A stretch of DNA of 64,000 nucleotides from Patescibacteria group bacterium (GTDB taxonomy: Bacteria > Patescibacteriota > Kazan-3B-28). Under the pieces are notes generated by a model that was not told the DNA's origin, did no database searches, and saw nothing but the letters and a program-made list of their open reading frames with translations. The stretch is taken from contig JAQUNP010000002.1 in NCBI GenBank assembly GCA_028717565.1, positions 26,054-90,053 on the forward strand. Direction: 5' to 3'. Positions 313 to 59,210 of this stretch are shown here, piece after piece (position 1 is the first letter of the stretch; the number at the start of each line of letters is the position of its first letter). The position numbers were made by a program, and so were the translations under genes.

Positions 313-329
313 GTTCCGATAAAGAAAGA

Positions 330-360
330 CCCTCCCGTATCCGCCATGGGCGGGGGAGGG
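330..360. terminator. Bidirectional hairpin between convergent clpP and the Zn-ribbon ORF
   Basis: CCCTCCC...CCGCC atg GGCGG GGGAGGG nested stem. There is no clear U-run. Confidence 0.45.
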
Positions 361-379
361 CTGAAGTGGTGCAATCAGT

Positions 380-610
380 TCAGTTACCCGAGGTTGGGAC
401 GGGTTCGGGCACGTTGGAGCCAGTGACCTGTTTGCCGCATTTGGGGCAAAAGGTGTTGAGCGGTCCCAACATGGCGCCGCAGGTACACCGGGGACGCCGG
501 TAGAGAACTAGCCCCGACTGATTACACCCTCTTCGTGTGCACACAGATTGATCTGTGGGATACTTTTGTCCACATTCGGGACACTGCGCGAAATCAGCTC
601 TTTCACCCAT
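380..610 (-). CDS. Small double zinc-ribbon protein, function unknown
   Basis: 76 aa with four Cys pairs (CPEC, CTRRGC, CTC, CPKC). GAGGTG lies upstream of the ATG. A putative TTGCCA-17-TAGGTT promoter is on the minus strand. A 60-nt sample is visibly GC-rich (36/60). Confidence 0.6.
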   Translation of the reverse strand: MGERADFAQCPECGQKYPTDQSVCTRRGCNQSGLVLYRRPRCTCGAMLGPLNTFCPKCGKQVTGSNVPEPVPTSGN

Positions 611-698
611 AATTCACCTCGCTGATGCGCCATGATTGGAATACGGCTACAACCTACCATGATTTAGTAAACTTGGCAATGGAAGCGGATAATTCGTA

Positions 699-1565
699 TT
701 GAGCTATAATGTACTAGTGAAGGTAGATTTCAAGGGGTTAGTTGGACAAACGAGAGTGAAAGATACTCTCAGCCAGGTCGTGGAAGGGGATAACCTGCCA
801 CAAACTTTGGTATTTGCGGGGGCGGATGGAGTGGGCAAAGTTACCTGCGCCAAGCTTTTGGCTAAACATTTACACCAAGGTGACGGTTTGGCCGATACTT
901 TTGTTTTCAGCGAGATATTAGCAGAAGTACGTGAGCAGGGAGAGAAAAGTCCTCTGATTACCGCAACTCGGCGGATGATAAGTTTTTTGACTCGTTCGCC
1001 AATTGCCTCGAAGTATAAGGTAGCGATTATTGATGACGCACAGCGTTTAAGTGATGAGGCGCAAAACGCTTTGTTAAAAACTTTGGAAGAGCCCAGAGAA
1101 GACACCCTGCTGATGATTACGGTAAACGACGAAACAAAACTTTTACCAACGATTTTATCTAGAGCGCGGGTAATAAAGTTTGGTCCTTTGAGTGACGAAG
1201 AAATTCGGTTGGTGGTAGATGCTAGTGATGATTTGTTGCGAATGGCACAGGGCAGTCTGGGCTGGGTGAAACAAATGCAGGGCGACGATGAGGCCTGGAC
1301 GGATTTTAGAGACATGGTGGATTTTTGGCAGAACATAAAAGCCAAAGATGTGGTGGAGAGATTTGAATGGGCCAGTAAGAAACAGGTGCGAGAAGATGCC
1401 GTGCAGTTTGTGCGAACTGGCATTTTGGTAATGCGTGAAAGTTTGATGCAAGATATGAAGGCGCAAGCTGCGCTAGATATTTTGCGACTGCAAGAATGTT
1501 TGAAACAAATTGAAGATAATGTGAATGTGCGCCTAGCTCTGGAGGCGATGCTGCTTGTTTTTTAG
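699..1565 (+). CDS. holB: DNA polymerase III delta' subunit
   Basis: Motifs GADGVGKVTCA (P-loop-like), EAQNALLKTLEEP and TILSRARVIKF. The start is ambiguous: TTG at 699, or GTG at 717, which lies 6 nt after TATAAT at 705-710. Confidence 0.8.
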   Translation: MSYNVLVKVDFKGLVGQTRVKDTLSQVVEGDNLPQTLVFAGADGVGKVTCAKLLAKHLHQGDGLADTFVFSEILAEVREQGEKSPLITATRRMISFLTRSPIASKYKVAIIDDAQRLSDEAQNALLKTLEEPREDTLLMITVNDETKLLPTILSRARVIKFGPLSDEEIRLVVDASDDLLRMAQGSLGWVKQMQGDDEAWTDFRDMVDFWQNIKAKDVVERFEWASKKQVREDAVQFVRTGILVMRESLMQDMKAQAALDILRLQECLKQIEDNVNVRLALEAMLLVF

Positions 1566-6393: not shown

Positions 6394-6918
6394 ATGCCTA
6401 AAACAAGACAACAAAAAGAGCAGGAATTGAGCCGTTTAACCGGTCTGTTGAAAGACGCTGATTTTGGCGTTTTAACAGATTTTACCGGCTTGTCGATGGT
6501 GGATTTAGATAATTTTCGAGCGAAGGCTAGGGAAAAGGGTGTGCAATATACAGTAGTGAAGACATCACTCTTGGATTTGGCAGCTAAAAAGGTGGGTTTT
6601 AGTGGAGTGAATACTGTTAAGCAGGGCAAAAGCTACGCTTTGGCACACGGTGGCAAGGATGAGGTGTCTATTTCCAAACTAGTTAATGATTTTGCAAAAC
6701 AAAGTGAAGGCAGAGTAAACATCTACGCTGGATTGATTAATGGGGAGGTTGTGCCAGCTGGTATGGTGGTGCAGTTAGCTTCGCTGCCGTCCTATGAGGA
6801 ATTGATGGCGAAGGTGGTCGGCTCTATGAATGCACCTATCTCGAATTTTGTTTACTCGATTAACTACACTATGCAATCGTTTTATAACGTTGTGAAAGCT
6901 ATACAAGAATCTAAATAA
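6394..6918 (+). CDS. rplJ: 50S ribosomal protein L10
   Basis: 174 aa. Its position upstream of rplL and the overall L10-like sequence (TGLSMVDLDNFRAKARE) support the call. Confidence 0.9.
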   Translation: MPKTRQQKEQELSRLTGLLKDADFGVLTDFTGLSMVDLDNFRAKAREKGVQYTVVKTSLLDLAAKKVGFSGVNTVKQGKSYALAHGGKDEVSISKLVNDFAKQSEGRVNIYAGLINGEVVPAGMVVQLASLPSYEELMAKVVGSMNAPISNFVYSINYTMQSFYNVVKAIQESK

Positions 6919-6932
6919 TATAAGAGGTTATT

Positions 6933-7502
6933 ATGGCAGACGAACAAACTAACCAATCCCAAGGGGAGAACGAAGAGCAGCAAGCCCCTGAAGCTCAAGA
7001 AGAGCAACAGGTTGAAGTGGCTGCAGAAGCTCCGGCTGAGGAAACCAAGGCCGAAGAGGCGCCAGCGCCTGTAGCAGAGAAGCCGGTAGAAGAGAAAAAA
7101 GAAGTAGACACCTCTAAGTTATCCGAGACCGCTAATAAGGTTTTGGACATGGTGTCTGAAATGACTGTTTTGGAACTGGCCGAGCTTGTCAAAGTAATGG
7201 AAGACAAGTTTGGTGTGAGCGCCGCTCCGGCCGCTGTGGCTGTAGCTGGCGGAGCTGCAGCGGGTGGTGGGGACGCGCAAGCTGAAGAAAAGGATAGCTA
7301 CAATATCAATTTGGCTGACGCTGGCGGCAACAAGATTGCTGTCATCAAGGCCGTTCGCGAGATTACAGATTTGGGTCTGAAGGAGGCCAAGGATTTGGTA
7401 GAAGCAGCTCCGAAGATTGTGAGGGAAGGTGTAAAGAAAGAAGAAGCCGAAGAAATGAAGAAGAAGCTCGAAGAGGCCGGTGCTAAAGTAGAATTGGTCT
7501 AA
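6933..7502 (+). CDS. rplL: 50S ribosomal protein L7/L12 with a ~65-aa acidic N-terminal extension
   Basis: The C-terminal 125 aa are canonical ([19 protein letters not shown] ... [23 protein letters not shown]). AGAGG SD precedes the ATG at 6933. The extension is E/Q/A/P-rich. Confidence 0.9.
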
Positions 7503-7547
7503 CCCCATTTTGTTCGCCCAAAACGGGGTACAAAAGGGCGCCCCTAT

Positions 7548-7664
7548 CACAAAATGTTAACCAAAAACCAAAATCGTCCTTTCTGGATTTAACCGCAAAC
7601 TCGCCCAAGGGCTCAGACATGCTCATCCAGATCGGACGATTTTGCTATTGGTGGACACATTTTG
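7548..7664. repeat. R1a: short, divergent member of the R1 long-hairpin family
   Basis: Nested stems CAAAATGT/ACATTTTG, CAAAATCGTCC/GGACGATTTTG and TCTGGAT/ATCCAGA. The core is GCAAACTC-[GCCCaaGGGC]-TCAGACATGC, as in R1b and R1c. Confidence 0.6.
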
Positions 7665-7718
7665 CTCAAAGGGGGAGGGGGGTGAATAGAGAAGGGATTA
7701 TTGGTATAACAAAGGTGC

Positions 7719-8816
7719 ATGAGTATTGGGTTTGAGATAAAAAATCGAGACGGGAAGGCGCGTAGCGGAGTAATCACAACGGGACATGGAAGTATGCGAA
7801 CTCCCTTGATAACGGTGAACTTTACGCCAGCGTTGTTACGCTCTGGGCTTAAACCCAGTGACGTGAAAGAGTTGGGCAGTGAATTAATATTGGTAAATAC
7901 TTTGCATGCATATTTGAGTGGGATGCGAGATGTGCATGAGGACTTGGGGTGGGAGGGGCCAGTGTTAGCTGATTCGGGCGGTTTTCAAATGATTTCGTTG
8001 GCAGATAAAATGGGCGCCACTGCCGAAGGTGTGGAGTTTGAAATTAACGGCGAGGCGCATTTTTTTGATCCTAAAAAAGTTTTGGAGATTCAAAGAAGTA
8101 TAGGGGTTGATATGATGATGCCGTTGGACTATGTGGTAAGTGTGCGTACGCATTCGCTTGCACTTTTTTTGACATCGGTAACCCAAACACGACTTTGGTT
8201 TGGGCAGGCAGCACTAACGGGTACGGAAAATTTGTACTACATTGTGCAAGGAGGCACTAGTAGCGTGGCTCGGTGGCTATCGGTTAAGGATGCGAACAGA
8301 TGGCTGCGTGCGGGAGTGGAAGCGGTGGCTTTGGGAGGTATTTCCTTGGGCGAGACCAAGCAAGAGATCTACGATACGGTTAAGTTTTGCTGTGATCGCT
8401 TAGTAGAAGACAGACCTCGGCATTTGCTAGGAGTGGGAGATCCGGAAGATTTGCTAGAGTGTGTAGAGCGAGGGATTGATACTTTTGATTGTGTATCGAC
8501 AACTCGTCTGGCTCGGCATGGGCGAGTGTGGACTTTTGGCGGAGTATTACGTTTGCGGCAGGAGCAATTTGGGCGTGATCAGAGTGTGCTGGAGCCGGGC
8601 TGTGATTGCCCGACGTGTCGAGCAGGCGAAAGCCGCGCTGCTTTGCGTGAAGGGTTGCGAGATGTAAATGAGGCAGTGGTTCGAGAAACCAAGTTGAAAT
8701 TAATGAAACACAATATTCGGTTTGTGAATCGGTTAATGGAAGGCATAAGGCAGGCGATAGAAGTGGGTGAGTTGGCCAAGTTTAAGGCCGAGTTTTTGGC
8801 GATATATAAAAGGTAG
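7719..8816 (+). CDS. tgt: tRNA-guanine transglycosylase (queuine/preQ1 tRNA-ribosyltransferase family)
   Basis: Motifs LADSGGFQ, VQGG, LGGISLGE, LLGVGDPEDL, FDCVSTTRLARHG and the zinc site CDCPTC. Confidence 0.88.
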   Translation: MSIGFEIKNRDGKARSGVITTGHGSMRTPLITVNFTPALLRSGLKPSDVKELGSELILVNTLHAYLSGMRDVHEDLGWEGPVLADSGGFQMISLADKMGATAEGVEFEINGEAHFFDPKKVLEIQRSIGVDMMMPLDYVVSVRTHSLALFLTSVTQTRLWFGQAALTGTENLYYIVQGGTSSVARWLSVKDANRWLRAGVEAVALGGISLGETKQEIYDTVKFCCDRLVEDRPRHLLGVGDPEDLLECVERGIDTFDCVSTTRLARHGRVWTFGGVLRLRQEQFGRDQSVLEPGCDCPTCRAGESRAALREGLRDVNEAVVRETKLKLMKHNIRFVNRLMEGIRQAIEVGELAKFKAEFLAIYKR

Positions 8817-43231: not shown

Positions 43232-43702
43232 ATGACAGTTGAGACCGCAACAATGTATATTTCTAAAGAAGGTTTAGAAAAATTACAAAAGGAGCTATCC
43301 GAGCTTCAGGTTCAGCGTGTAGAGATTACTCAAAAGATTAAAGAGGCACGCGAATTTGGCGACCTATCAGAAAATGCTGAATATCAAGAGGCCAGAACCA
43401 AGCAGTCCTTTATTGAGGGCCGGATTGAAGAGATCGAAGCAATTTTGAAAAGCGCACAGGTAGTGGATGGCCGGAGTAAAGCTAAGGGTGTTATTGGCGT
43501 GGGTTCTGAAGTGGTAGTGAAGGCGAACGGTAGTGAGAAAACCTACAAATTGACCGGTTCTGATGAGGCCAGCCCGCTGGAAGGTAAAATTTCGCATGAG
43601 TCCCCGTTGGGTCAGGCATTGATGGGTCAAAAGGTAGGGGATAAGGTGACTTTGGAAACCCCAGATGGGAAGAAGGAGTACACGATTCTTAAAGTCGGTT
43701 AG
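43232..43702 (+). CDS. greA: Transcription elongation factor GreA
   Basis: TTGACA-17-TACAAT promoter at ~43135 and GGGAGG SD. AREFGDLSENAEY.EA. Confidence 0.92.
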   Translation: MTVETATMYISKEGLEKLQKELSELQVQRVEITQKIKEAREFGDLSENAEYQEARTKQSFIEGRIEEIEAILKSAQVVDGRSKAKGVIGVGSEVVVKANGSEKTYKLTGSDEASPLEGKISHESPLGQALMGQKVGDKVTLETPDGKKEYTILKVG

Positions 43703-43733
43703 TTCACAAACGCTAGCTGGCGTTTGATCCAGC

Positions 43734-43937
43734 CCACCTTTTTGCTTGTCCAAAAAGGTGGAGAAAAAGACACCCCGGTCGAGATTGGTCAGAGCCAAAG
43801 GAATTTGGTTCTGTTTGGCAAAGCAGCAAACTCTCCCTCTCCAGTTTGTGCCAAACTGGAGAGGGATCAGACATGCCTTGGCCAAAAACCAAACCAAATT
43901 CAAATTTGGCTTAGCTGACAATCTCTCCAACGGGGGA
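43734..43937. repeat. R1b: 11-bp-stem hairpin plus ~165-nt long imperfect hairpin
   Basis: CCACCTTTTTG cttgtc CAAAAAGGTGG, then a long hairpin with core GCAAACTC-[14-bp apical hairpin CCCTCTCCAGTTTG/CAAACTGGAGAGGG]-TCAGACATGC. Outside the apex it is nearly identical to 49879-50086. Confidence 0.75.
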
Positions 43938-43957: not shown

Positions 43958-44020
43958 ATTTTCAACGGCTCAAAATCCGCCGGCTGGCGGAGAGCCGTTG
44001 AGTTTTGGGCTTCCAGAGCC
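43958..44020 (+). repeat. R2 (long form): nested terminator-like hairpin plus conserved tail
   Basis: CAACGGCTC aaaa TCCGCC ggct GGCGGA GAGCCGTTG agTTTTGGGCTTCCAGAGC. About 60 of 63 nt are identical to 59145-59210 by eye. Confidence 0.7.
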
Positions 44021-45923: not shown

Positions 45924-47117
45924 ATGATTGATTTAAGTGCGCTGAAAGACAATCTGGATGAATGGCAAAAAGCTCTCGATAAACGTGGGGAAAAATATGA
46001 TCTCAAGAAGGTTCTGGAGCAAGCGACCAAGTTTGGTCAATTGGTAAAGGAGCTGGATGATATCCGTGCTCAACAGAACAAGGCCTCCAAAGAGCACAAT
46101 ATAGTTGAAGGTAAACGTCTCAAGAAGCTAGAGATGGCCAAAGTCAAGGAAATGGAAGCGCCACGTGGCAACCATTTTGTTGGTGATGTGCCCAATATTC
46201 CCCTTTGGGATGTGCCGGAGGGGAGGGATGAGGCGAGTATGCGGATTCTAGAGACGGTCGGCAAAACACCAACTATAAAGGATATCAAGGACCATATTGA
46301 GCTGGGAGTGGGCTTAAACATTTTGGATATTGAACGGGCTACCAAAACCTCTGGCGCAAGGTTTTATTATTTAAAGAACCAGGCCGTTGAACTGGAGTTT
46401 GCTTTAGTTCGATGGGTGATGGACTTGCTTAAGACAAAGGGGTTTGAGTTGATGATACCTCCCCAGATGGTTAACAGGATGACGATGGATGCTGGCGGTT
46501 ATCTACGCAAGAATGAAGACGAAGTGTATCAAACTCAAGATGACCTTTTTTTGATTGGTACGTCGGAGCAAAGCATTTTGGGTTACCACTCAGCGGAAAT
46601 TATTGATGTGCCGAAACGGTATGCGGCTTTTTCAACCTGTTTTAGACGGGAAGCGGGTAGCTATGGCAAGGATGTAAAGGGAATCATCCGAACTCATCAG
46701 TTCGATAAGGTTGAGATGTTTTCGTTTGTGTTGCCCAAAGACTCCGAAGCCGAGCAGGACTTCATGAATAACATCCAAGAGGAGATATTGCAGGGGCTGG
46801 AGATACCTTACCGCAAAGTACTCTTGGCGGCTGGGGATTTGAGTACGCCTTCGGCCAAAACTATCGACATGGAGAGTTGGCTGCCCAGTCAGCAACGGTA
46901 TCGCGAGACACATTCGTGTAGCAATTGTACGGATTGGCAGGCAAGGCGGGCGAACATAAGGTATGAAAAAGGTAAATTTGTTCATACCCTTAACGGAACC
47001 GCAATAGCGATTGGACGTACGCTGGTGGCCTTGCTAGAAAACCATCAACAGGCAGACGGTTCGGTTAAGATACCAAAGGCACTGCATGCATATCTGAGTT
47101 TTAAGGAAATCAGGTAA
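45924..47117 (+). CDS. serS: Serine--tRNA ligase
   Basis: [31 protein letters not shown] and ENHQ..DGS..IP. Confidence 0.92.
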
Positions 47118-49822
47118 TGAAATTTCTGGAGCGGTTGCTGGGGGATCCGAACAAAAAGGCATTAAAGGCACTCGAGCCAATTTTGGCGCGAGTTAATTCG
47201 CACGCCGATGCTTTTAAGGCGCTGGATGATGAACAGCTCAAAAGCAAAACTGAAGAGTTCAAGGTACGTCTAGAAAAGGGTGACGGTTTGGATGATATTT
47301 TGCCAGAGGCATTTGCAGTAGTACGCGAAGCGGCGAGCCGGGTTCTTCATGAACGACCGTATGATGTGCAGGTGATGGGGGGAATTGTGCTGCATCAAGG
47401 CAAGATCGCTGAGATGAAAACTGGTGAAGGAAAAACTTTGGCGGCAACTATGCCGGTGTATCTCAATGCCTTGACTGGTAGGGGGGTGCATGTCATTACG
47501 GTGAACGATTATCTGGCTAGTCGTGACGCAGAGTGGATGGGAAAGATTTATGAGTTTTTGGGTCTCACTGTGGCTGCGGTTACCAATGCCTTGCCGCCAC
47601 ACCAAAGAAAAGACGCCTACGCATGTGACATCGTGTACGGTACCAACAATGAGTTTGGTTTTGATTATCTGCGCGACAATATGGCACCAAGAAAGGAAGA
47701 TCAGGTGCAACGGGAACTGAATTTTGTGATTGTGGACGAGGTGGACTCGATTTTGATTGATGAAGCCAGAACGCCACTAATTATTTCGGCGCCAGCGGAA
47801 GAATCGGCAGAGCACTATAAGCGCTTTGCTAGAGTCGTACCGCAGCTGACTGCGAACGTGGACTATACGGTTGATGAAAAAGATCGGGCGGCTAATTTGA
47901 CAGAAGAAGGTATCGATAAGCTCCAAAAACTTTTGGGGGTAACCGATATTTATGAATCGGGTAATGTAATGTTGGCGCATCATGTGGAACAGGCCTTGCG
48001 CGCCCAGGCGCTCTACAAAAAGGATGTCGATTATGTAATCAAAGATGGCGAGATTGTCATCGTAGATGAATTTACCGGACGCCTGATGGTGGGCAGACGA
48101 TATTCCGAAGGTCTGCATCAAGCGATTGAGGCCAAAGAGGGCGTGGAAATAAAACGGGAAAGCCGGACGTTGGCGACCATTACTTTTCAAAACTACTTTC
48201 GGCTTTACGACAAGCTGTCTGGTATGACTGGTACGGCTAAGACCGAAGAAGAGGAGTTCTTTAAGATTTATGGTCTGGAGGTAGTAGTGATCCCCACTAA
48301 TCAACCAATTGTGCGCGACGATATGAACGACCTCGTATTTGCCAATGAACGAGGCAAGTTCAAGGCGGTGGTTGAGGAGATCAAAAAGCGCAACGCGACT
48401 GGTCAGCCGGTGCTGGTGGGTACGATTGCAATTGAAAAATCTGAAGCTCTGTCAGATTTATTAAAAAAAGAAGGTGTCACTCACAATGTGTTGAATGCCA
48501 AACAACACGAGCGGGAGGCGGAGATAGTCAAAGATGCTGGTCTAAAAGGTGCTGTGACGATTGCCACCAACATGGCTGGTCGTGGTACTGACATTAAGCT
48601 TGGCGAAGGCGTAAGAGAGCTGGGCGGTTTGCATATTTTAGGTACTGAAAGGCATGAATCGCGCCGGATTGATAACCAGCTGCGTGGCCGTGCCGGTCGT
48701 CAGGGTGATGCTGGTAGTAGTCAATTCTTTGTGTCATCCCAAGACGATTTGATGCGGTTGTTTGGTAGCGAGAAGATGCAAAACATGATGCGGGCAATGA
48801 AAATCCCAGAAGATCAGCCGATTGAGCACAAATGGATAACTGGCAGTATTGAATCGGCTCAGAAGCGAGTGGAGGGTCACAATTTCGATATTCGCAAACG
48901 AGTGGTGGAATACGATGACGTGATGAATCGTCACCGCACGGCAATTTATAAACAACGGCAAGGGCTTTTGGAGCAAGCCGAAGTGAAAGAAACCCTGCAG
49001 GGCTACATCAAAAATGAACTTACCGCTCTGGTAGCTACTTATTTGGGCGAGGATAAATCTTTGTGGGACAAAGAGACGCTTACTAAAAGCGTTGAGGGAA
49101 TTTTCCCTTTGCGAGAGGATATCAAGACCTTAATTTCAACTTCTGAAAAGCGGGAAGAGGTGGAGGAAAAATTGTTAGCGGAAGCGCAACGATTGTATGA
49201 GGCCAAGGAAAAGGAGGCAGGCGAAGAGCAGTTCAGACAGGTAGAGCGCGCAGTGCTTTTGCGCGTTATCGATATGCTGTGGATGGAACATCTTGATGCC
49301 ATGGTTCGTTTGCGCGAGGCGATAGGGCTGCATGGCTATGCTCAAAAAGATCCTCTAGTGGAATACAAACAAGAGGCCTACCAGATGTTTCAGCGCCTGC
49401 AGGCGGCGATTGCTAGTGACGCAACGCGGTTGATTTATCGGGTGCAAGTAGTATCACCCCAAGAGCAGGAACGTCGCCGTCAGGAGCAACAGGCCAAACA
49501 AGAGATGGCGCTCAAGGGTGCCGATGAACCGGAGGTGGGCTTCAAAGACGAGGAGAAGGATTTAAAACAAAAGGAAAAGACAAATGTCGTTCCCAAGTCG
49601 GAGGCGGAGCCATCTGCCATTGGGGATCTAGACAAAAAACAGAAGCCTGTTCTAGATTCCGGTTTTCACGGGAATGACGGAGGGAATAGCTCTTCGAGCG
49701 GATCGACAGAAGAATATGAGGAGATGACAGCCGAGAATTTTTCCCACAAAGACAAGGTGGGGAGAAATGATCCCTGCCCATGTGGTAGTGGCAAGAAATA
49801 TAAGAAGTGTTGTGGGAAATAG
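47117..49822 (+). CDS. secA: Protein translocase ATPase SecA
   Basis: [47 protein letters not shown] and the C-terminal zinc motif [14 protein letters not shown]. Confidence 0.95.
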
Positions 49823-49878
49823 TGTCTGCCACCATTTGTGTCAGTAGATGGGAAGCGCCACATCGCGCTTCACCGATG

Positions 49879-50086
49879 CCACCTTTTTGCTTGTCCAAAA
49901 AGGTGGGGAAAAAGACACCCCGGTCGAGATTAGTCAGAGCCAAAGGATTTTGGTTCTGTTTGGCAAAGTAGCAAACTCTTCCGGTAGCTATTTTTAATAT
50001 ACAAGGAGACCGGAATCAGACATGCCTTTGCCAAAAACTAAACCAAATTCAGCTTTGGCTTAGCTGACAATCTCTCCAACGGGGGA
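49879..50086. repeat. R1c: near-identical copy of R1b with a different apical hairpin
   Basis: I count about 8 substitutions over ~170 aligned flank nt vs R1b. The apex is replaced by TTCCGGT ..23 nt.. ACCGGAA. The core GCAAACTC / TCAGACATGC is retained. Confidence 0.75.
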
Positions 50087-56881: not shown

Positions 56882-57793
56882 ATGACTACTTTTTGGAGAA
56901 GAATTTTTCGTTCGGCATTCAGCGGTTTCAAAAGAAACGGTTGGCTGTCTTTGGTGGCGGTTTTTATTATGAGCCAGGCACTTTTAATCATTTCCATTTT
57001 TGCGTCAATAAATTTGGTGATAGGTGCGAGTATTAATGCTATCAATGAGCGCATTGATGTAGCTGTATTTTTCAAAGAGACGGTTAAGGAGGAGCAAGCC
57101 CTAGCTCTGAGAACCAAGGTGATGACGTGGGAGGGGGTGAACGAAGTAGTATATGTATCTCCTCAAGAGGCTCTAGATAAGTTTCTGAACGAGAATCGAA
57201 ACCGGTCAGCGATTCGCGATGTTATCCCAGCGGAGGAAAACTTCTTGCCAGCCAGCTTGGAGGTGAAGGTAGCGGATCCCTATGTGATTGAGCAGGTCAT
57301 AGACAGAATTCTGAAAAGTGAGGATGCGGCGCTGATTTCGGAAACTAGTTTGCAGGATAACCAACAGCTGATTGCGCGGTTGCGAGATGTGGGGAGTTTT
57401 ATTCAGCGCACGAGTTTGATTCTAGCGGGTGTCTTTGTGGTAATCGCTTTACTGATTATTTTTAATACGATTCGTATTACTATATTTACCCGCCGAGATG
57501 AAATTGAAATTATGAAGCTAGTTGGGGCGACAGATTGGTATATTCGTTGGCCGTTTATTGTGGAAGGTATGCTCTATGGCGTAATCGCTACGCTGCTGAC
57601 GCTGCTACTGCTGTATTTAGGATATTTGGCATTTGTGCGGCCGATGGTGGAAAGCTATGTGATCTCTACAGTCAATAGCCCGATTTTCTCGTGGGGATTT
57701 CTGATCTTCTTGGCTATCATGCAGCTGGTGATTGGTCTGGGGGTGGGAGGATTTAGTAGCTATTTGGCAACAAAGAAACACCTCAATGTTTAA
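56882..57793 (+). CDS. ftsX: Cell division permease FtsX
   Basis: Four TM helices with a large first extracytoplasmic loop. EIEIMKLVGAT..YIR.PF..EG. Confidence 0.88.
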   Translation: MTTFWRRIFRSAFSGFKRNGWLSLVAVFIMSQALLIISIFASINLVIGASINAINERIDVAVFFKETVKEEQALALRTKVMTWEGVNEVVYVSPQEALDKFLNENRNRSAIRDVIPAEENFLPASLEVKVADPYVIEQVIDRILKSEDAALISETSLQDNQQLIARLRDVGSFIQRTSLILAGVFVVIALLIIFNTIRITIFTRRDEIEIMKLVGATDWYIRWPFIVEGMLYGVIATLLTLLLLYLGYLAFVRPMVESYVISTVNSPIFSWGFLIFLAIMQLVIGLGVGGFSSYLATKKHLNV

Positions 57794-58940
57794 GCGAGTT
57801 CTAACCTGGTTTTTGGTTATAGCAATGCTAGTGCCTGCTCTGACGGTACGAGCTGATCTTTTGAGTGACAAAACCAGTGAATTAAATAATTTACGCAAAG
57901 AGATTGAAAAGCAACAGTCGGCTTTAGATAGTGCCAAGAAAAGGTCTTTGACTCTACAAAACCAGATCGACATTTTGGACCAACAGATCTCTGTGGCCGA
58001 GTTGCAGCTCCAGGCCCTAACTGCGCAGATTGATCAGACCAACCTGCAGATGGATAGTGTGAATGCGGATTTAGTAGATGCGGAAGTACAAATTTATGAA
58101 AAGAAGCGGGTCTTGCGAGAGGCCATCAAAGTATCGTATATGCGCCGACAAACTGGGTTATTGGAGATGCTGGTGGGCTCTTCTGATCTTTCAGAATTGA
58201 TGAGCCAGTTGGAATATATTACTGCGATTGAGGGCAGAATCTCCAATGGTTTGGCAGTACTAAAAGAACTGAATGAAACTTTGGCAGCGAAAAAAGGTGA
58301 GCTGGAAAAACTTGATCAGGAGCTCAAGGAGTTGGCTAATGCCAAGCAGTTGGAGCAAAACAGCTTAGCGGTGCAGGTCACGGCTAAGGACTCCATGCTA
58401 CAGGACTCAAAGCTCACAGAAGCTGAGTACCAAAAGCGGTTGCAGGAAGCGGTAGCAGAACAGCAGCGACTGCAGCAAGAAATTGCCGCATTGGCTAAAA
58501 ATACTCGGAAGGGAGAACTCAACCAAGGCAATTTTGCTTTGCAGTGGCCAGTGCCATCGCGACAAATTTCCGCTGGTTTTCATGATGCGGATTATGCAGC
58601 TAGGTTCGGTATGCAACACAATGCGATAGATATTCCCACTCCGCAAGGTACGCCAATTCGGGCACCTGCTGACGCATTTGTGTCAAAGATCCGGTTCGAT
58701 GGTTCTAATGCTTATTCGTATATTGTGCTCGATCACGGTAACGGTATGGTGACTGTTTACGGACACGTCAGTTCAGTCGCTGTGTCGGTGGGGCAATTTG
58801 TGCCAGTTGGATCGGTCATTGGCGGTAGTGGCGGCACGCCAGGGAGCACTGGTGCGGGTTGGTTGACGACTGGTCCTCATTTACACTTTGAGGTTTGGTT
58901 GGATGGGCAGGCGAGAAATCCTCTAGCGTATTTGTCGTAA
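57786..58940 (+). CDS. Coiled-coil M23 (LytM-domain) peptidase, EnvC-like partner of FtsEX
   Basis: Signal MFKRVLTWFLVIAMLVPALTVRA, a long coiled coil, and LytM motifs HNAIDI and GPHLHFEV. It overlaps the ftsX end. Confidence 0.85.
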   Translation: MFKRVLTWFLVIAMLVPALTVRADLLSDKTSELNNLRKEIEKQQSALDSAKKRSLTLQNQIDILDQQISVAELQLQALTAQIDQTNLQMDSVNADLVDAEVQIYEKKRVLREAIKVSYMRRQTGLLEMLVGSSDLSELMSQLEYITAIEGRISNGLAVLKELNETLAAKKGELEKLDQELKELANAKQLEQNSLAVQVTAKDSMLQDSKLTEAEYQKRLQEAVAEQQRLQQEIAALAKNTRKGELNQGNFALQWPVPSRQISAGFHDADYAARFGMQHNAIDIPTPQGTPIRAPADAFVSKIRFDGSNAYSYIVLDHGNGMVTVYGHVSSVAVSVGQFVPVGSVIGGSGGTPGSTGAGWLTTGPHLHFEVWLDGQARNPLAYLS

Positions 58941-58966
58941 GCGCTAGACGGCGCTTCAACCCGTCG

Positions 58967-59147
58967 TCACTTTTTTAGAAAAAGTGACATAAAAATCCTC
59001 CGCGGTCGAAAATAGCTGTTCATCTCAAATAACAGCTGCTTTATGCTTATCACCAAACTCGCTACGCTCAAACATGGGCACGCTTAAATGCAGCTGTTAT
59101 TTGGATTCAAGACGCTATTTTCTCCGACGCTCGACTAGGAAGGAGAT
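58967..59147. repeat. R1-like composite hairpin repeat (copy D), related to 19140-19320
   Basis: GTCACTTTTTT aga AAAAAGTGAC hairpin, then CAAATAACAGCTGC (59026-39) paired with GCAGCTGTTATTTG (59090-103). The core-like segment is CCAAACTC gctacgc TCAAACATGG. Confidence 0.5.
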
Positions 59148-59210
59148 TTGGCAACGGCTCAAAATCCGCCAGCTGGCGGAGAGCCGTTGAATTTTGGGCT
59201 TCCAGAGCTG
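59145..59210 (+). repeat. R2 (long form), second copy
   Basis: CAACGGCTC aaaa TCCGCC agct GGCGGA GAGCCGTTG aaTTTTGGGCTTCCAGAGC. Confidence 0.7.

Follow-up and report, generated by a model that had tools for sequence, protein, structure and literature searches.

R1a, a hairpin unit immediately downstream of rplL in a patescibacterial genome, belongs to a dispersed cross-phylum family

INTRODUCTION

Small palindromic repeats of bacteria (REPs, REPINs and MITEs) are normally lineage-specific. REPINs are hairpin-forming REP doublets linked to RAYT (Y1 HUH) transposases; REP and REPIN elements are thought to move as folded single strands, and they can stabilise the upstream mRNA. In MITEs it is the termini, where the transposase binds, that are conserved, and short target duplications are left behind. 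Individual REPs are described as 20–40 bp long, lineage-specific, and marked by a GTAG or CGTC tag at the foot (PMC3733652, PMC3116915). The hairpins of IS200/IS605 elements are likewise short (PMC6006769).

Here we describe R1a, a unit of about 170 nt that follows rplL in a 64 000-nt stretch of a Patescibacteria contig (the whole of which is called the window). A first-pass annotation had listed it with two other copies, R1b and R1c, as a short, divergent member with stem covariation, by implication an RNA element tied to rplL, in the position usually taken by rpoB. The interest of the locus is less in R1a than in the cross-phylum family to which it belongs.

RESULTS

R1a is a diverged member of the R1 family

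Within 7569–7644 lie the core GCAAACTC-[GCCC aa GGGC]-TCAGACATGC and every stem named at first pass, just as described (Table 1). The extent originally given, 7548–7664, is too small. The R1a unit occupies 7503–7674 (+), exceeding those limits on both sides, and two more stems, a linker and a 5′ hairpin (H0) belong to it. H0 begins immediately 3′ of the rplL stop codon. The purine-rich linker behind it is a repeat of the H0 3′ arm and thus an alternative partner for the H0 5′ arm, a pairing which is the one chosen in the DNA fold of R1a; linkers that repeat the H0 3′ arm have the same layout in Hydrogenophaga (L025) and Ralstonia (L163). The unit is closed by a C-run/G-run stem, and a MAFFT alignment of three copies shows that H0, the linker and the closing stem are homologous in R1a, R1b and R1c. 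R1a is indeed a short member, having neither an upstream GC hairpin (Hx) nor a downstream hairpin/terminator module (R2) before tgt.

Table 1. Positions of R1a, its parts, the neighbouring genes, the other R1 copies in the window and the composite elements of other hosts
Feature	Position	Strand	Remarks
rplJ	6394–6918		flanking gene
rplL	6933–7502		stop codon 7500–7502
H0, 5′ hairpin of R1a	7503–7528	+	CCCCATTTTG / loop TTCGCC / CAAAACGGGG; one A.C mismatch
Purine-rich linker of R1a	7529–7540	+	TACAAAAGGGCG
Long imperfect hairpin of R1a	7541–7674	+	from folds, alignment A4 and pair counts
Outer stems of R1a	7541–7545/7670–7674; 7550–7557/7657–7664; 7560–7564/7648–7652		
Basal conserved loop of R1a	7546–7549 / 7665–7669		ATCA / CTCAA
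Stem CAAAATCGTCC/GGACGATTTTG of R1a	7569–7579/7634–7644		11 bp, perfect
Stem TCTGGAT/ATCCAGA of R1a	7582–7588/7625–7631		
Innermost stem below tip of R1a	7595–7597/7620–7622		
Apical core of R1a	7595–7622	+	GCAAACTC 7595–7602, tip P2, TCAGACATGC 7613–7622
Tip hairpin P2 of R1a	7603–7612		GCCC aa GGGC
tgt	7719–8816		next gene 3′ of R1a, instead of rpoB
HD-domain protein, 1476 aa	9666–14096		after tgt and a small ORF
R1b, full unit	43734–43937	+	3′ of greA (43232–43702); core 43826–43876
R1c, full unit	49879–50086	+	3′ of secA (47117–49822); core 49971–50025
R1d, full unit	~58965–59135	+	3′ of M23 peptidase gene (57732–58940)
Composite, Hydrogenophaga	L025 17–566		
Composite, Ralstonia	L163 2500–2990		
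Composite, Nitrospirota MAG	L079 4330–4720		

Folded as RNA, 7548–7664 has a predicted energy of −42.5 kcal/mol (z = −6.9), and none of 200 shuffles was as stable; the DNA fold of 7503–7676 gives −35 kcal/mol (z = −4.9). The doubt attached to the original proposal, a chance match of the core (8 + 10 nt), was checked by counting. For the two strands of the window together, the expected number of bipartite cores with a gap of 4–60 nt is about 1e-4, against three exact ones seen, and the gapped core pattern was matched in 0 of 100 shuffles. Both halves of the core recur in the window only at R1b (43826/43867) and R1c (49971/50016).

A covariance model had been suggested. A leave-out model of the core was built on 52 sequences taken from other phyla, and contained nothing from the window or from CPR bacteria. 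R1a is its best match in the window (33.3 bits, E = 5.5e-7). The four best matches there are R1a, R1b (E = 0.0025), R1d (E = 0.006) and R1c, all on the + strand, and the next has E = 0.4. A search of the window for H0-type hairpins found only four loci, all of them R1 copies. R1a thus truly belongs to the R1 family, as was first claimed, although it has diverged: its stems differ in sequence from those of R1b and R1c and are yet complementary. The folds, the alignment and the model searches agree in this.

Twenty-five R1a-type copies share one architecture

A metagenome scan with R1a-specific flanks yielded 23 further units, which were aligned with R1a, L047 (from a Saccharibacterium) and L138 (alignment A4). 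The 25 R1a-type copies have one architecture, in which a hairpin at the 5′ end is joined by a purine linker to a long hairpin, the latter with conserved loops at its base and near its apex. The H0 consensus is CCACCCATTTG cgccgc CAAACGGGTGG and that of the linker CGCCCAAAGGCGG; the parts in common are the basal loop ATTCA / CTCAAT, three covarying stems, CTGGAT/ATCCAG, the loop TTAACC/TC and the core. RNAalifold predicts 39 pairs from this alignment, 19 of them with compensatory change. The helices are 93.8% paired, none of 500 shuffles reached any of the measures, and the signal collapsed in controls with slid partners. R1a fits every one of these helices, yet is a short unit.

H0 takes part in this covariation, with five of its seven pairs (helix 1) changed on both sides among the 25 copies. 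The hairpin close to the rplL stop codon that had been noted before is thus present and common to the other copies, but it is not an independent structure: as H0 covaries over the 25 copies and has no U tail, it is part of the repeat rather than a separate terminator. On the + strand of R1a, TACAAAAGGG comes after H0 and GAGGGGGGTG after the long hairpin, neither being a U tract, and a terminator scan reported nothing within 7500–7700.

Mini-palindromes are nested within loops of H0, of an arm and of the R2 hairpin, and it looks as if small palindromes may insert at hairpin tips. Separately, the minus strand 3′ of the unit in L141 has four tandem repeats of about 40 nt, each with CTC(C/T)AATGGCNGG; they resemble the 3′ strand of the basal loop, CTCAATGGGG, and the repeated motif is found once more behind many other units.

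Other R1 copies in the window

The three copies first listed, R1a, R1b and R1c, all stand, and a fourth that was not on the list, R1d, has a variant core. R1d lies at the end of the ftsX–M23 peptidase operon (ftsEX–M23 peptidase), and its architecture is complete. The core variant, CCAAACTC-GCTACGC-TCAAACATGG at 59053–59077, has the first closing pair flipped from G-C to C-G, with TCAAACATG in place of TCAGACATG, and H0 is GTCACTTTTTT aga AAAAAGTGAC. H0 homologues with covarying stems are found in R1b, R1c and R1d alike.

R1b and R1c are 96% and 94% identical on the two sides of an unrelated P2 tip (43834–43866 against 49979–50015), one tip being a 15-bp perfect stem and the other a 7-bp stem with a 23-nt AT-rich loop. 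The difference has the form of a localised replacement. A short target duplication was not seen at the boundaries of R1b and R1c.

Canonical + strand terminators lie 3′ of R1b, R1c and R1d, so that these units are probably transcribed together with the upstream gene. R1 might itself be a portable insulator cassette of two opposed terminators, kept to isolate operons in compact genomes. The upstream GC hairpin and the H0 T-run would stop transcription coming rightward, and the long hairpin, with the complement of the linker as U tract, that coming leftward. Several features are as such a cassette would have them. At 43716–43733 (R1b), 49861–49878 (R1c) and 58947–58968 (R1d), the scan for terminators picks out a hairpin with the T-run of H0 after it; a hairpin and YTTTTG abutting H0 precede every R1a-type unit other than R1a; read on the minus strand, the sequence after the long hairpin is UGUCUUUUUCU in R1b or CGCCCUUUUGUA in R1a; and the units stand at operon ends (rplJL, greA, secA and ftsEX–M23 peptidase). 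However, the number of terminators from the scan was no higher than the shuffled expectation, R1b, R1c and R1d already have their separate canonical terminators, and R1a has no YTTTTG tract or GC hairpin abutting its H0 and no U tract after its long hairpin (+). A cassette would also leave the invariant internal loops and the 100-nt arms unexplained, and we consider it improbable.

A promoter-like site (TTGAAA, 17 nt, GATACT) at 43965–43937 on the minus strand is aimed into the long hairpin of R1b; nothing like it adjoins R1a, R1c or R1d, and a promoter scan around the R1 copies found none that was consistent on either strand.

The canonical + strand terminator shortly 3′ of R1b and R1d is itself a repeat, R2 (43964–44010 and 59153–59199), of the form AACGGCTC aaaat CCGCC(G/A)GCTGGCGG aga GAGCCGTT, then GA(G/A)TTTTGGG. 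A simpler R2 (AACGGCTC..GAGCCGTT) follows R1a-type units in L145, L148 and L158. Nested in the R2 loop is a GC-rich mini-palindrome of 14 nt, either CCGCCRGCTGGCGG or a sequence close to it (43975–43988 and 59164–59177), and similar ones occur within R1a-type loops and arms of L140 and L159 (H0 loop, 3′ arm).

Orthologous spacers with and without R1

The best relatives of the L7/L12 protein encoded by rplL are about 68–80% identical to it, and several of them are named candidate division Kazan or Patescibacteria. The protein has an N-terminal extension of about 60 residues (window 6933–7130), rich in Glu, Ala, Pro and Gln, before the dimerisation domain; its Pfam domains start at residue 68, and the extension is common to relatives of 170–200 aa. 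Upstream of rplK-rplA-rplJ-rplL is a cluster of tRNA-Thr(GGT), tRNA-Tyr(GTA) and tRNA-Thr(TGT) genes (2189–2566). The 1476-aa protein further downstream, which has an N-terminal HD domain, stands in place of rpoB, and at the corresponding position L135, L137 and L138 encode proteins of 1379–1432 aa with AAA_16/TPR domains.

In L135 and L137 rplJ-rplL is kept with tgt as the next gene, and in L138 with asnB. There is no R1 in any of the three spacers after rplL; what they contain is a plain hairpin, a canonical terminator (AAAACCGCCC tatg GGGCGGTTTT) or no feature that we recognise. It is correct, then, that the gene after rplL in the window is tgt and not rpoB, but rplL-tgt is the ordinary gene order in the lineage. 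Because the rplL-tgt spacers of relatives are free of R1, the position of R1a looks like a chance insertion site, and not like a replacement of regulation linked to rpoB. The clpP-holB spacers give the reverse picture. Those of L135 and L138 carry an R1 unit, the one in L135 being the closest relative of R1a found, and the spacer 3′ of clpP in the window (313–700) has no R1.

A third site is the glgX-glgB spacer of Ralstonia, where a composite of R1 units is present in Po82, GMI1000 and most other strains, but not in FJAT442.F1 or in some ten further records among those listed. The empty allele has one copy of a small hairpin, TTTCG-TCCCCTGCCGGGG-CCGAAA, of which the filled allele has copies on both sides (L163/L164). 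The duplicated flanking segment is thus a hairpin of about 22 nt, and the element sits at the tip of a pre-existing hairpin; the polymorphism could be due to deletion between the flanking hairpin copies rather than to insertion. In the CPR units a target-site duplication was not identified. With presence and absence at the orthologous rplL-tgt, clpP-holB and glgX-glgB sites, the R1 family has been gained and lost at the DNA level.

These comparisons bear directly on the suggestion that R1a is an attenuator or terminator specific to rplJL, which would stand in for the rplL-rpoB attenuator of other bacteria. A strong hairpin immediately 3′ of rplL is what would be expected of it. However, relatives with the same gene order have a plain hairpin or a canonical terminator there instead of R1, R1 follows unrelated genes too, and no U tract follows the hairpin. 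This explanation is already contradicted by the comparative data, and we give it hardly any credence; more generally, the empty and filled spacers across the relatives and Ralstonia make any locus-specific rplJL function of R1a very unlikely.

R1 is found in several phyla

An exact-pattern scan for the core, with one genome per species, found at least 119 loci. Among the 121 matches listed, 34 have a flank complement of at least 3 bp together with an inner stem of at least 3 bp, where about 0.3 are expected; by eye, some 60 of the 121 are structured. The hosts include Betaproteobacteria (Zoogloea, Azoarcus/Thauera/Aromatoleum, Comamonadaceae and the megaplasmids of Ralstonia solanacearum), Nitrospirota, Syntrophorhabdus, Firmicutes (Finegoldia, Clostridium and Lachnospiraceae), Ca. 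Hakubella and Patescibacteria. R1-type copies are repeated within single genomes, and on the R. solanacearum megaplasmids the element is found in 134 of 143 matching plasmid records. The arms extend 45–130 nt beyond the core, so that whole elements are hairpins of 150–290 nt. Among viral contigs there were 15 exact core matches, none with flanking stems.

When 47 diverse members were aligned, pairing in the core-adjacent stems (P1/P2) was 90.6%; 151 changes were double-sided, and most positions had all four Watson–Crick pair types. In the cross-phylum alignments A3 and A5, AACTC-[P2]-TCARACA is nearly invariant. The two closing base pairs of the core covary. A model search of the loci showed that the variant core TCAAACATGC is common, and in the variants GGAAACTC...ACATCC and CTAAACTC...ACATAG the closing pairs are flipped compensatorily; the invariant part can thus be reduced to roughly AACTC-[tip]-TCARACA. 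The tip loops are frequently of the UUCG/UGCG type in GC-rich hosts. The core has ATG on both strands, and was also considered as coding sequence; this was rejected, the tip length running from 7 to 37 nt without a multiple-of-three pattern.

In Hydrogenophaga, Ralstonia and a Nitrospirota MAG, inverted doublets about 200 nt apart make composite palindromes of 480–550 bp. The composite in Hydrogenophaga has 169-nt arms that are 88% complementary, and the one in Ralstonia is similar. Both units of a composite have an H0-type hairpin of their own (CCTACTTTCTTTG .. CAAAGAAAGTAGG) and a linker in which the sequence of the 3′ arm recurs.

Searches for a partner gene or a known name for the family were negative. 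An all-against-all comparison of the proteins flanking 71 copies gave no shared family other than spurious ORFs overlapping the repeat and common ABC-type proteins, and no transposase or other recurrent neighbour gene was found beside the copies; the ORFs between the two copies in L092 are baseplate-J-like, not transposases. With Rfam 15 at the gathering threshold, the window gave tRNAs only and 18 motif-bearing loci gave nothing relevant. Over the window, the motif loci and the Ralstonia locus, the matches were confined to tRNAs, one unrelated T-box and, in E-value mode, generic miRNA-like hairpins, and the models of IS605-associated RNAs had no match. We found no published account that matches, whether under the core sequence, Azoarcus/Thauera repeats, CPR MITEs or structured RNAs, Ralstonia MITEs or TM7x small RNAs. 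By eye, we know of no fit to the hammerhead, hairpin ribozyme, K-turn, loop E, SRP domain IV, parS, CIRCE, dif or attC consensus.

Pairing and orientation as signs of DNA or RNA

An RNA helix that has been under selection for long is expected to show an excess of wobble pairs on one strand. Among some 450 cells of the cross-phylum P1/P2 stems there were no G.T and eight A.C combinations; the counts were 50 against 68 in the long arms, and about 25 against 16 in the R1a-type alignment. There is thus no G-U excess on either strand in the R1 alignments, and compensatory changes are abundant. The covariation proves a conserved hairpin, almost purely Watson–Crick paired; it is no proof of a functional RNA.

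Nearly every copy directly follows a gene and points in its direction. The gene before the unit has the unit's orientation in 20 of 21 R1a-type copies, and in tandem gene pairs 11 copies are co-oriented and none anti-oriented; a low-GC sample of other phyla gave 12 co-oriented against 4. The bias is not decisive, since gene direction and replication direction are confounded in CPR genomes.

R1 might be a functional structured RNA, such as a 3′-UTR element, a ribozyme, a scaffold of an RNP or an independent small RNA. Its conserved internal loops would then be the binding site of a conserved factor, or else a core for catalysis or ligand binding, and its copies would stem from repeated recruitment or from hitch-hiking on a mobile unit. 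We count as signs of RNA the loops, which are nearly invariant across phyla as every stem covaries, the compensatory flips of the core closing pairs, the frequent UUCG or UGCG tips, and the strict orientation to the upstream gene. The probable co-transcription of R1b, R1c and R1d with the gene before them, with canonical + terminators following, would also fit, and the complementary strand of both conserved loops would offer tandem G.A pairs beside a helix. Set against these are the missing G-U excess over A.C, the occurrence of both orientations within one composite in Betaproteobacteria, the presence of four copies in 64 kb that are differently placed in relatives, and the lack of an Rfam match or of a consistent promoter on either strand. 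The inverted composites, the nested palindromes and the tip swapped between the near-identical R1b and R1c we count as signs of DNA. A functional RNA is therefore possible but, in our estimate, doubtful. The picture first implied, of an RNA element tied to rplL, is supported in part: the family and its covariation are real, and better founded than the sequence alone could show at first pass. It needs correction in that R1 occurs elsewhere, is absent from the corresponding spacers of relatives and shows no G-U excess.

DISCUSSION

R1 is a conserved hairpin with two loops, present in multiple copies and in several phyla, variable in location, placed 3′ of genes and biased in orientation. The reading that we prefer, and to which we give about an even chance, is that R1a is a copy of a dispersed, orientation-biased palindromic DNA repeat, REPIN- or MITE-like and non-autonomous, that is moved or copied as a folded single strand. 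The Watson–Crick pairing, the multiple copies, the inverted doublets, the variable location, the glgX-glgB indel, the tip replacement, the nested mini-palindromes, the co-orientation in tandem gene pairs and the absence of an Rfam family all favour it. It is weakened by the lack of an adjoining transposase or recurrent protein and of a target-site duplication in CPR, and by the conservation of the centre rather than the termini, unlike in classical MITEs. The near-invariance of the 12–18 nt loops across phyla, the UUCG/UGCG tips and the strict co-orientation weaken it too, being traits of a functional RNA.

An R1 unit, about 170–250 nt long, is made up of H0, whose arms hold a T-run and an A-run, of the purine linker and of the long imperfect hairpin. 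In the latter there are two conserved internal loops, both asymmetric, the first close to the base and the second directly beneath the hypervariable tip. On the DNA-repeat reading, the unit would most likely fold single-stranded, its invariant loops acting as recognition determinants for a putative trans-acting enzyme or host factor, and would spread as DNA, non-autonomously, in the manner of a REPIN or MITE. It may prefer, or may survive only in, terminator-proximal spacers, and R1a would have arrived in the rplL-tgt spacer of the host lineage. If it is transcribed with rplJL, the R1a hairpin, with its predicted energy of about −42 kcal/mol, might be a barrier to 3′-exonucleases or a partial stop. 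As such it would uncouple the high expression of rplJL from tgt, limit read-through and protect the rplJL mRNA.

The loops of 12–18 nt have been kept from the ultra-small CPR bacteria to Ralstonia with all stems rewritten, and this points to a conserved, as yet unnamed partner, be it a protein or a catalytic or structural role. A bolder idea, which we put forward tentatively and to which we give a lesser though appreciable chance, is that R1 represents an undescribed, ancient class of structured element of Patescibacteria, Firmicutes, Betaproteobacteria, Nitrospirota and Desulfobacterota, either a single-stranded DNA hairpin recognised by its two invariant internal loops or an RNA of the ribozyme or RNP type that such a unit carries. 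If the former were true, mobilisation or replication-linked machinery would place a hairpin at the 3′ ends of genes; in either version the hypervariable tip would be a swappable module.

R1 is frequent, with four copies in 64 kb of a reduced genome, and is easily found by a covariance model. Its presence in culturable, tractable hosts (Ralstonia solanacearum, Finegoldia and Clostridium) makes the choice between mobile DNA and RNA directly testable. For annotation, the family is a caution that hairpins after ribosomal-protein genes should not be taken for operon-specific regulators.

Several known systems resemble R1 in part. The attenuator and RNase III site between rplL and rpoB of Escherichia coli is, like R1a, a structure that adjoins the 3′ end of rplL and might reduce expression of the gene behind it; but R1 is absent in relatives with the same gene order, the next gene is tgt, and R1 also follows greA, secA and a peptidase gene. 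The ends of IS200/IS605 elements and of their ORF-less derivatives (PATEs) share with R1 structured subterminal hairpins, a strong orientation bias and, at the left end, a terminator-like hairpin, and they transpose as single strands, as R1 may do, whereas R1 copies have no adjoining tnpA/tnpB and no defined cleavage tetra- or pentanucleotide. The attC sites of integrons are likewise hairpins of a single-stranded type, recognised by structure, with unpaired conserved features, a variable tip and a place 3′ of a co-oriented ORF. However, the R″/R′ boxes (RYYYAAC ... GTTRRRY) are absent at the foot of R1a and of the 25-copy consensus, the neighbours of R1 are housekeeping genes (rplL, tgt, greA, secA) and not cassettes, and a Pfam scan of the window ORFs found no integrase gene.

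The likeness to hairpin-forming MITEs (ERIC/IRU, Correia, RUP, bcr1 and Nezha) lies in the length of 100–300 bp, the near-full-length inverted repeat, the dispersed intergenic positions and the presence or absence between strains. R1 differs in that it conserves the centre, its arms and termini differing between hosts, and in that no short target duplication was found, the flanking duplicate in Ralstonia being itself a hairpin. REP, BIME and REPIN elements are, like R1, intergenic, multi-copy, palindromic, Watson–Crick paired and mostly situated just 3′ of genes, and they too are found singly or as inverted pairs, a pair folding into one long hairpin. Compared with REPs, R1 is 170–250 nt long and untagged (7503–7676 contains no GTAG/CTAC, and its sole CGTC lies inside a stem, at 7575–7578), its conserved parts are internal loops, and its core is common to several phyla; no RAYT gene was seen near any R1 copy among the 71 loci compared for neighbours. 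The nearest known kinds are nevertheless the REP/BIME/REPIN elements and the hairpin-forming MITEs, and the family looks like an undescribed relative of these small palindromic repeats rather than a regulator dedicated to ribosomal-protein genes.
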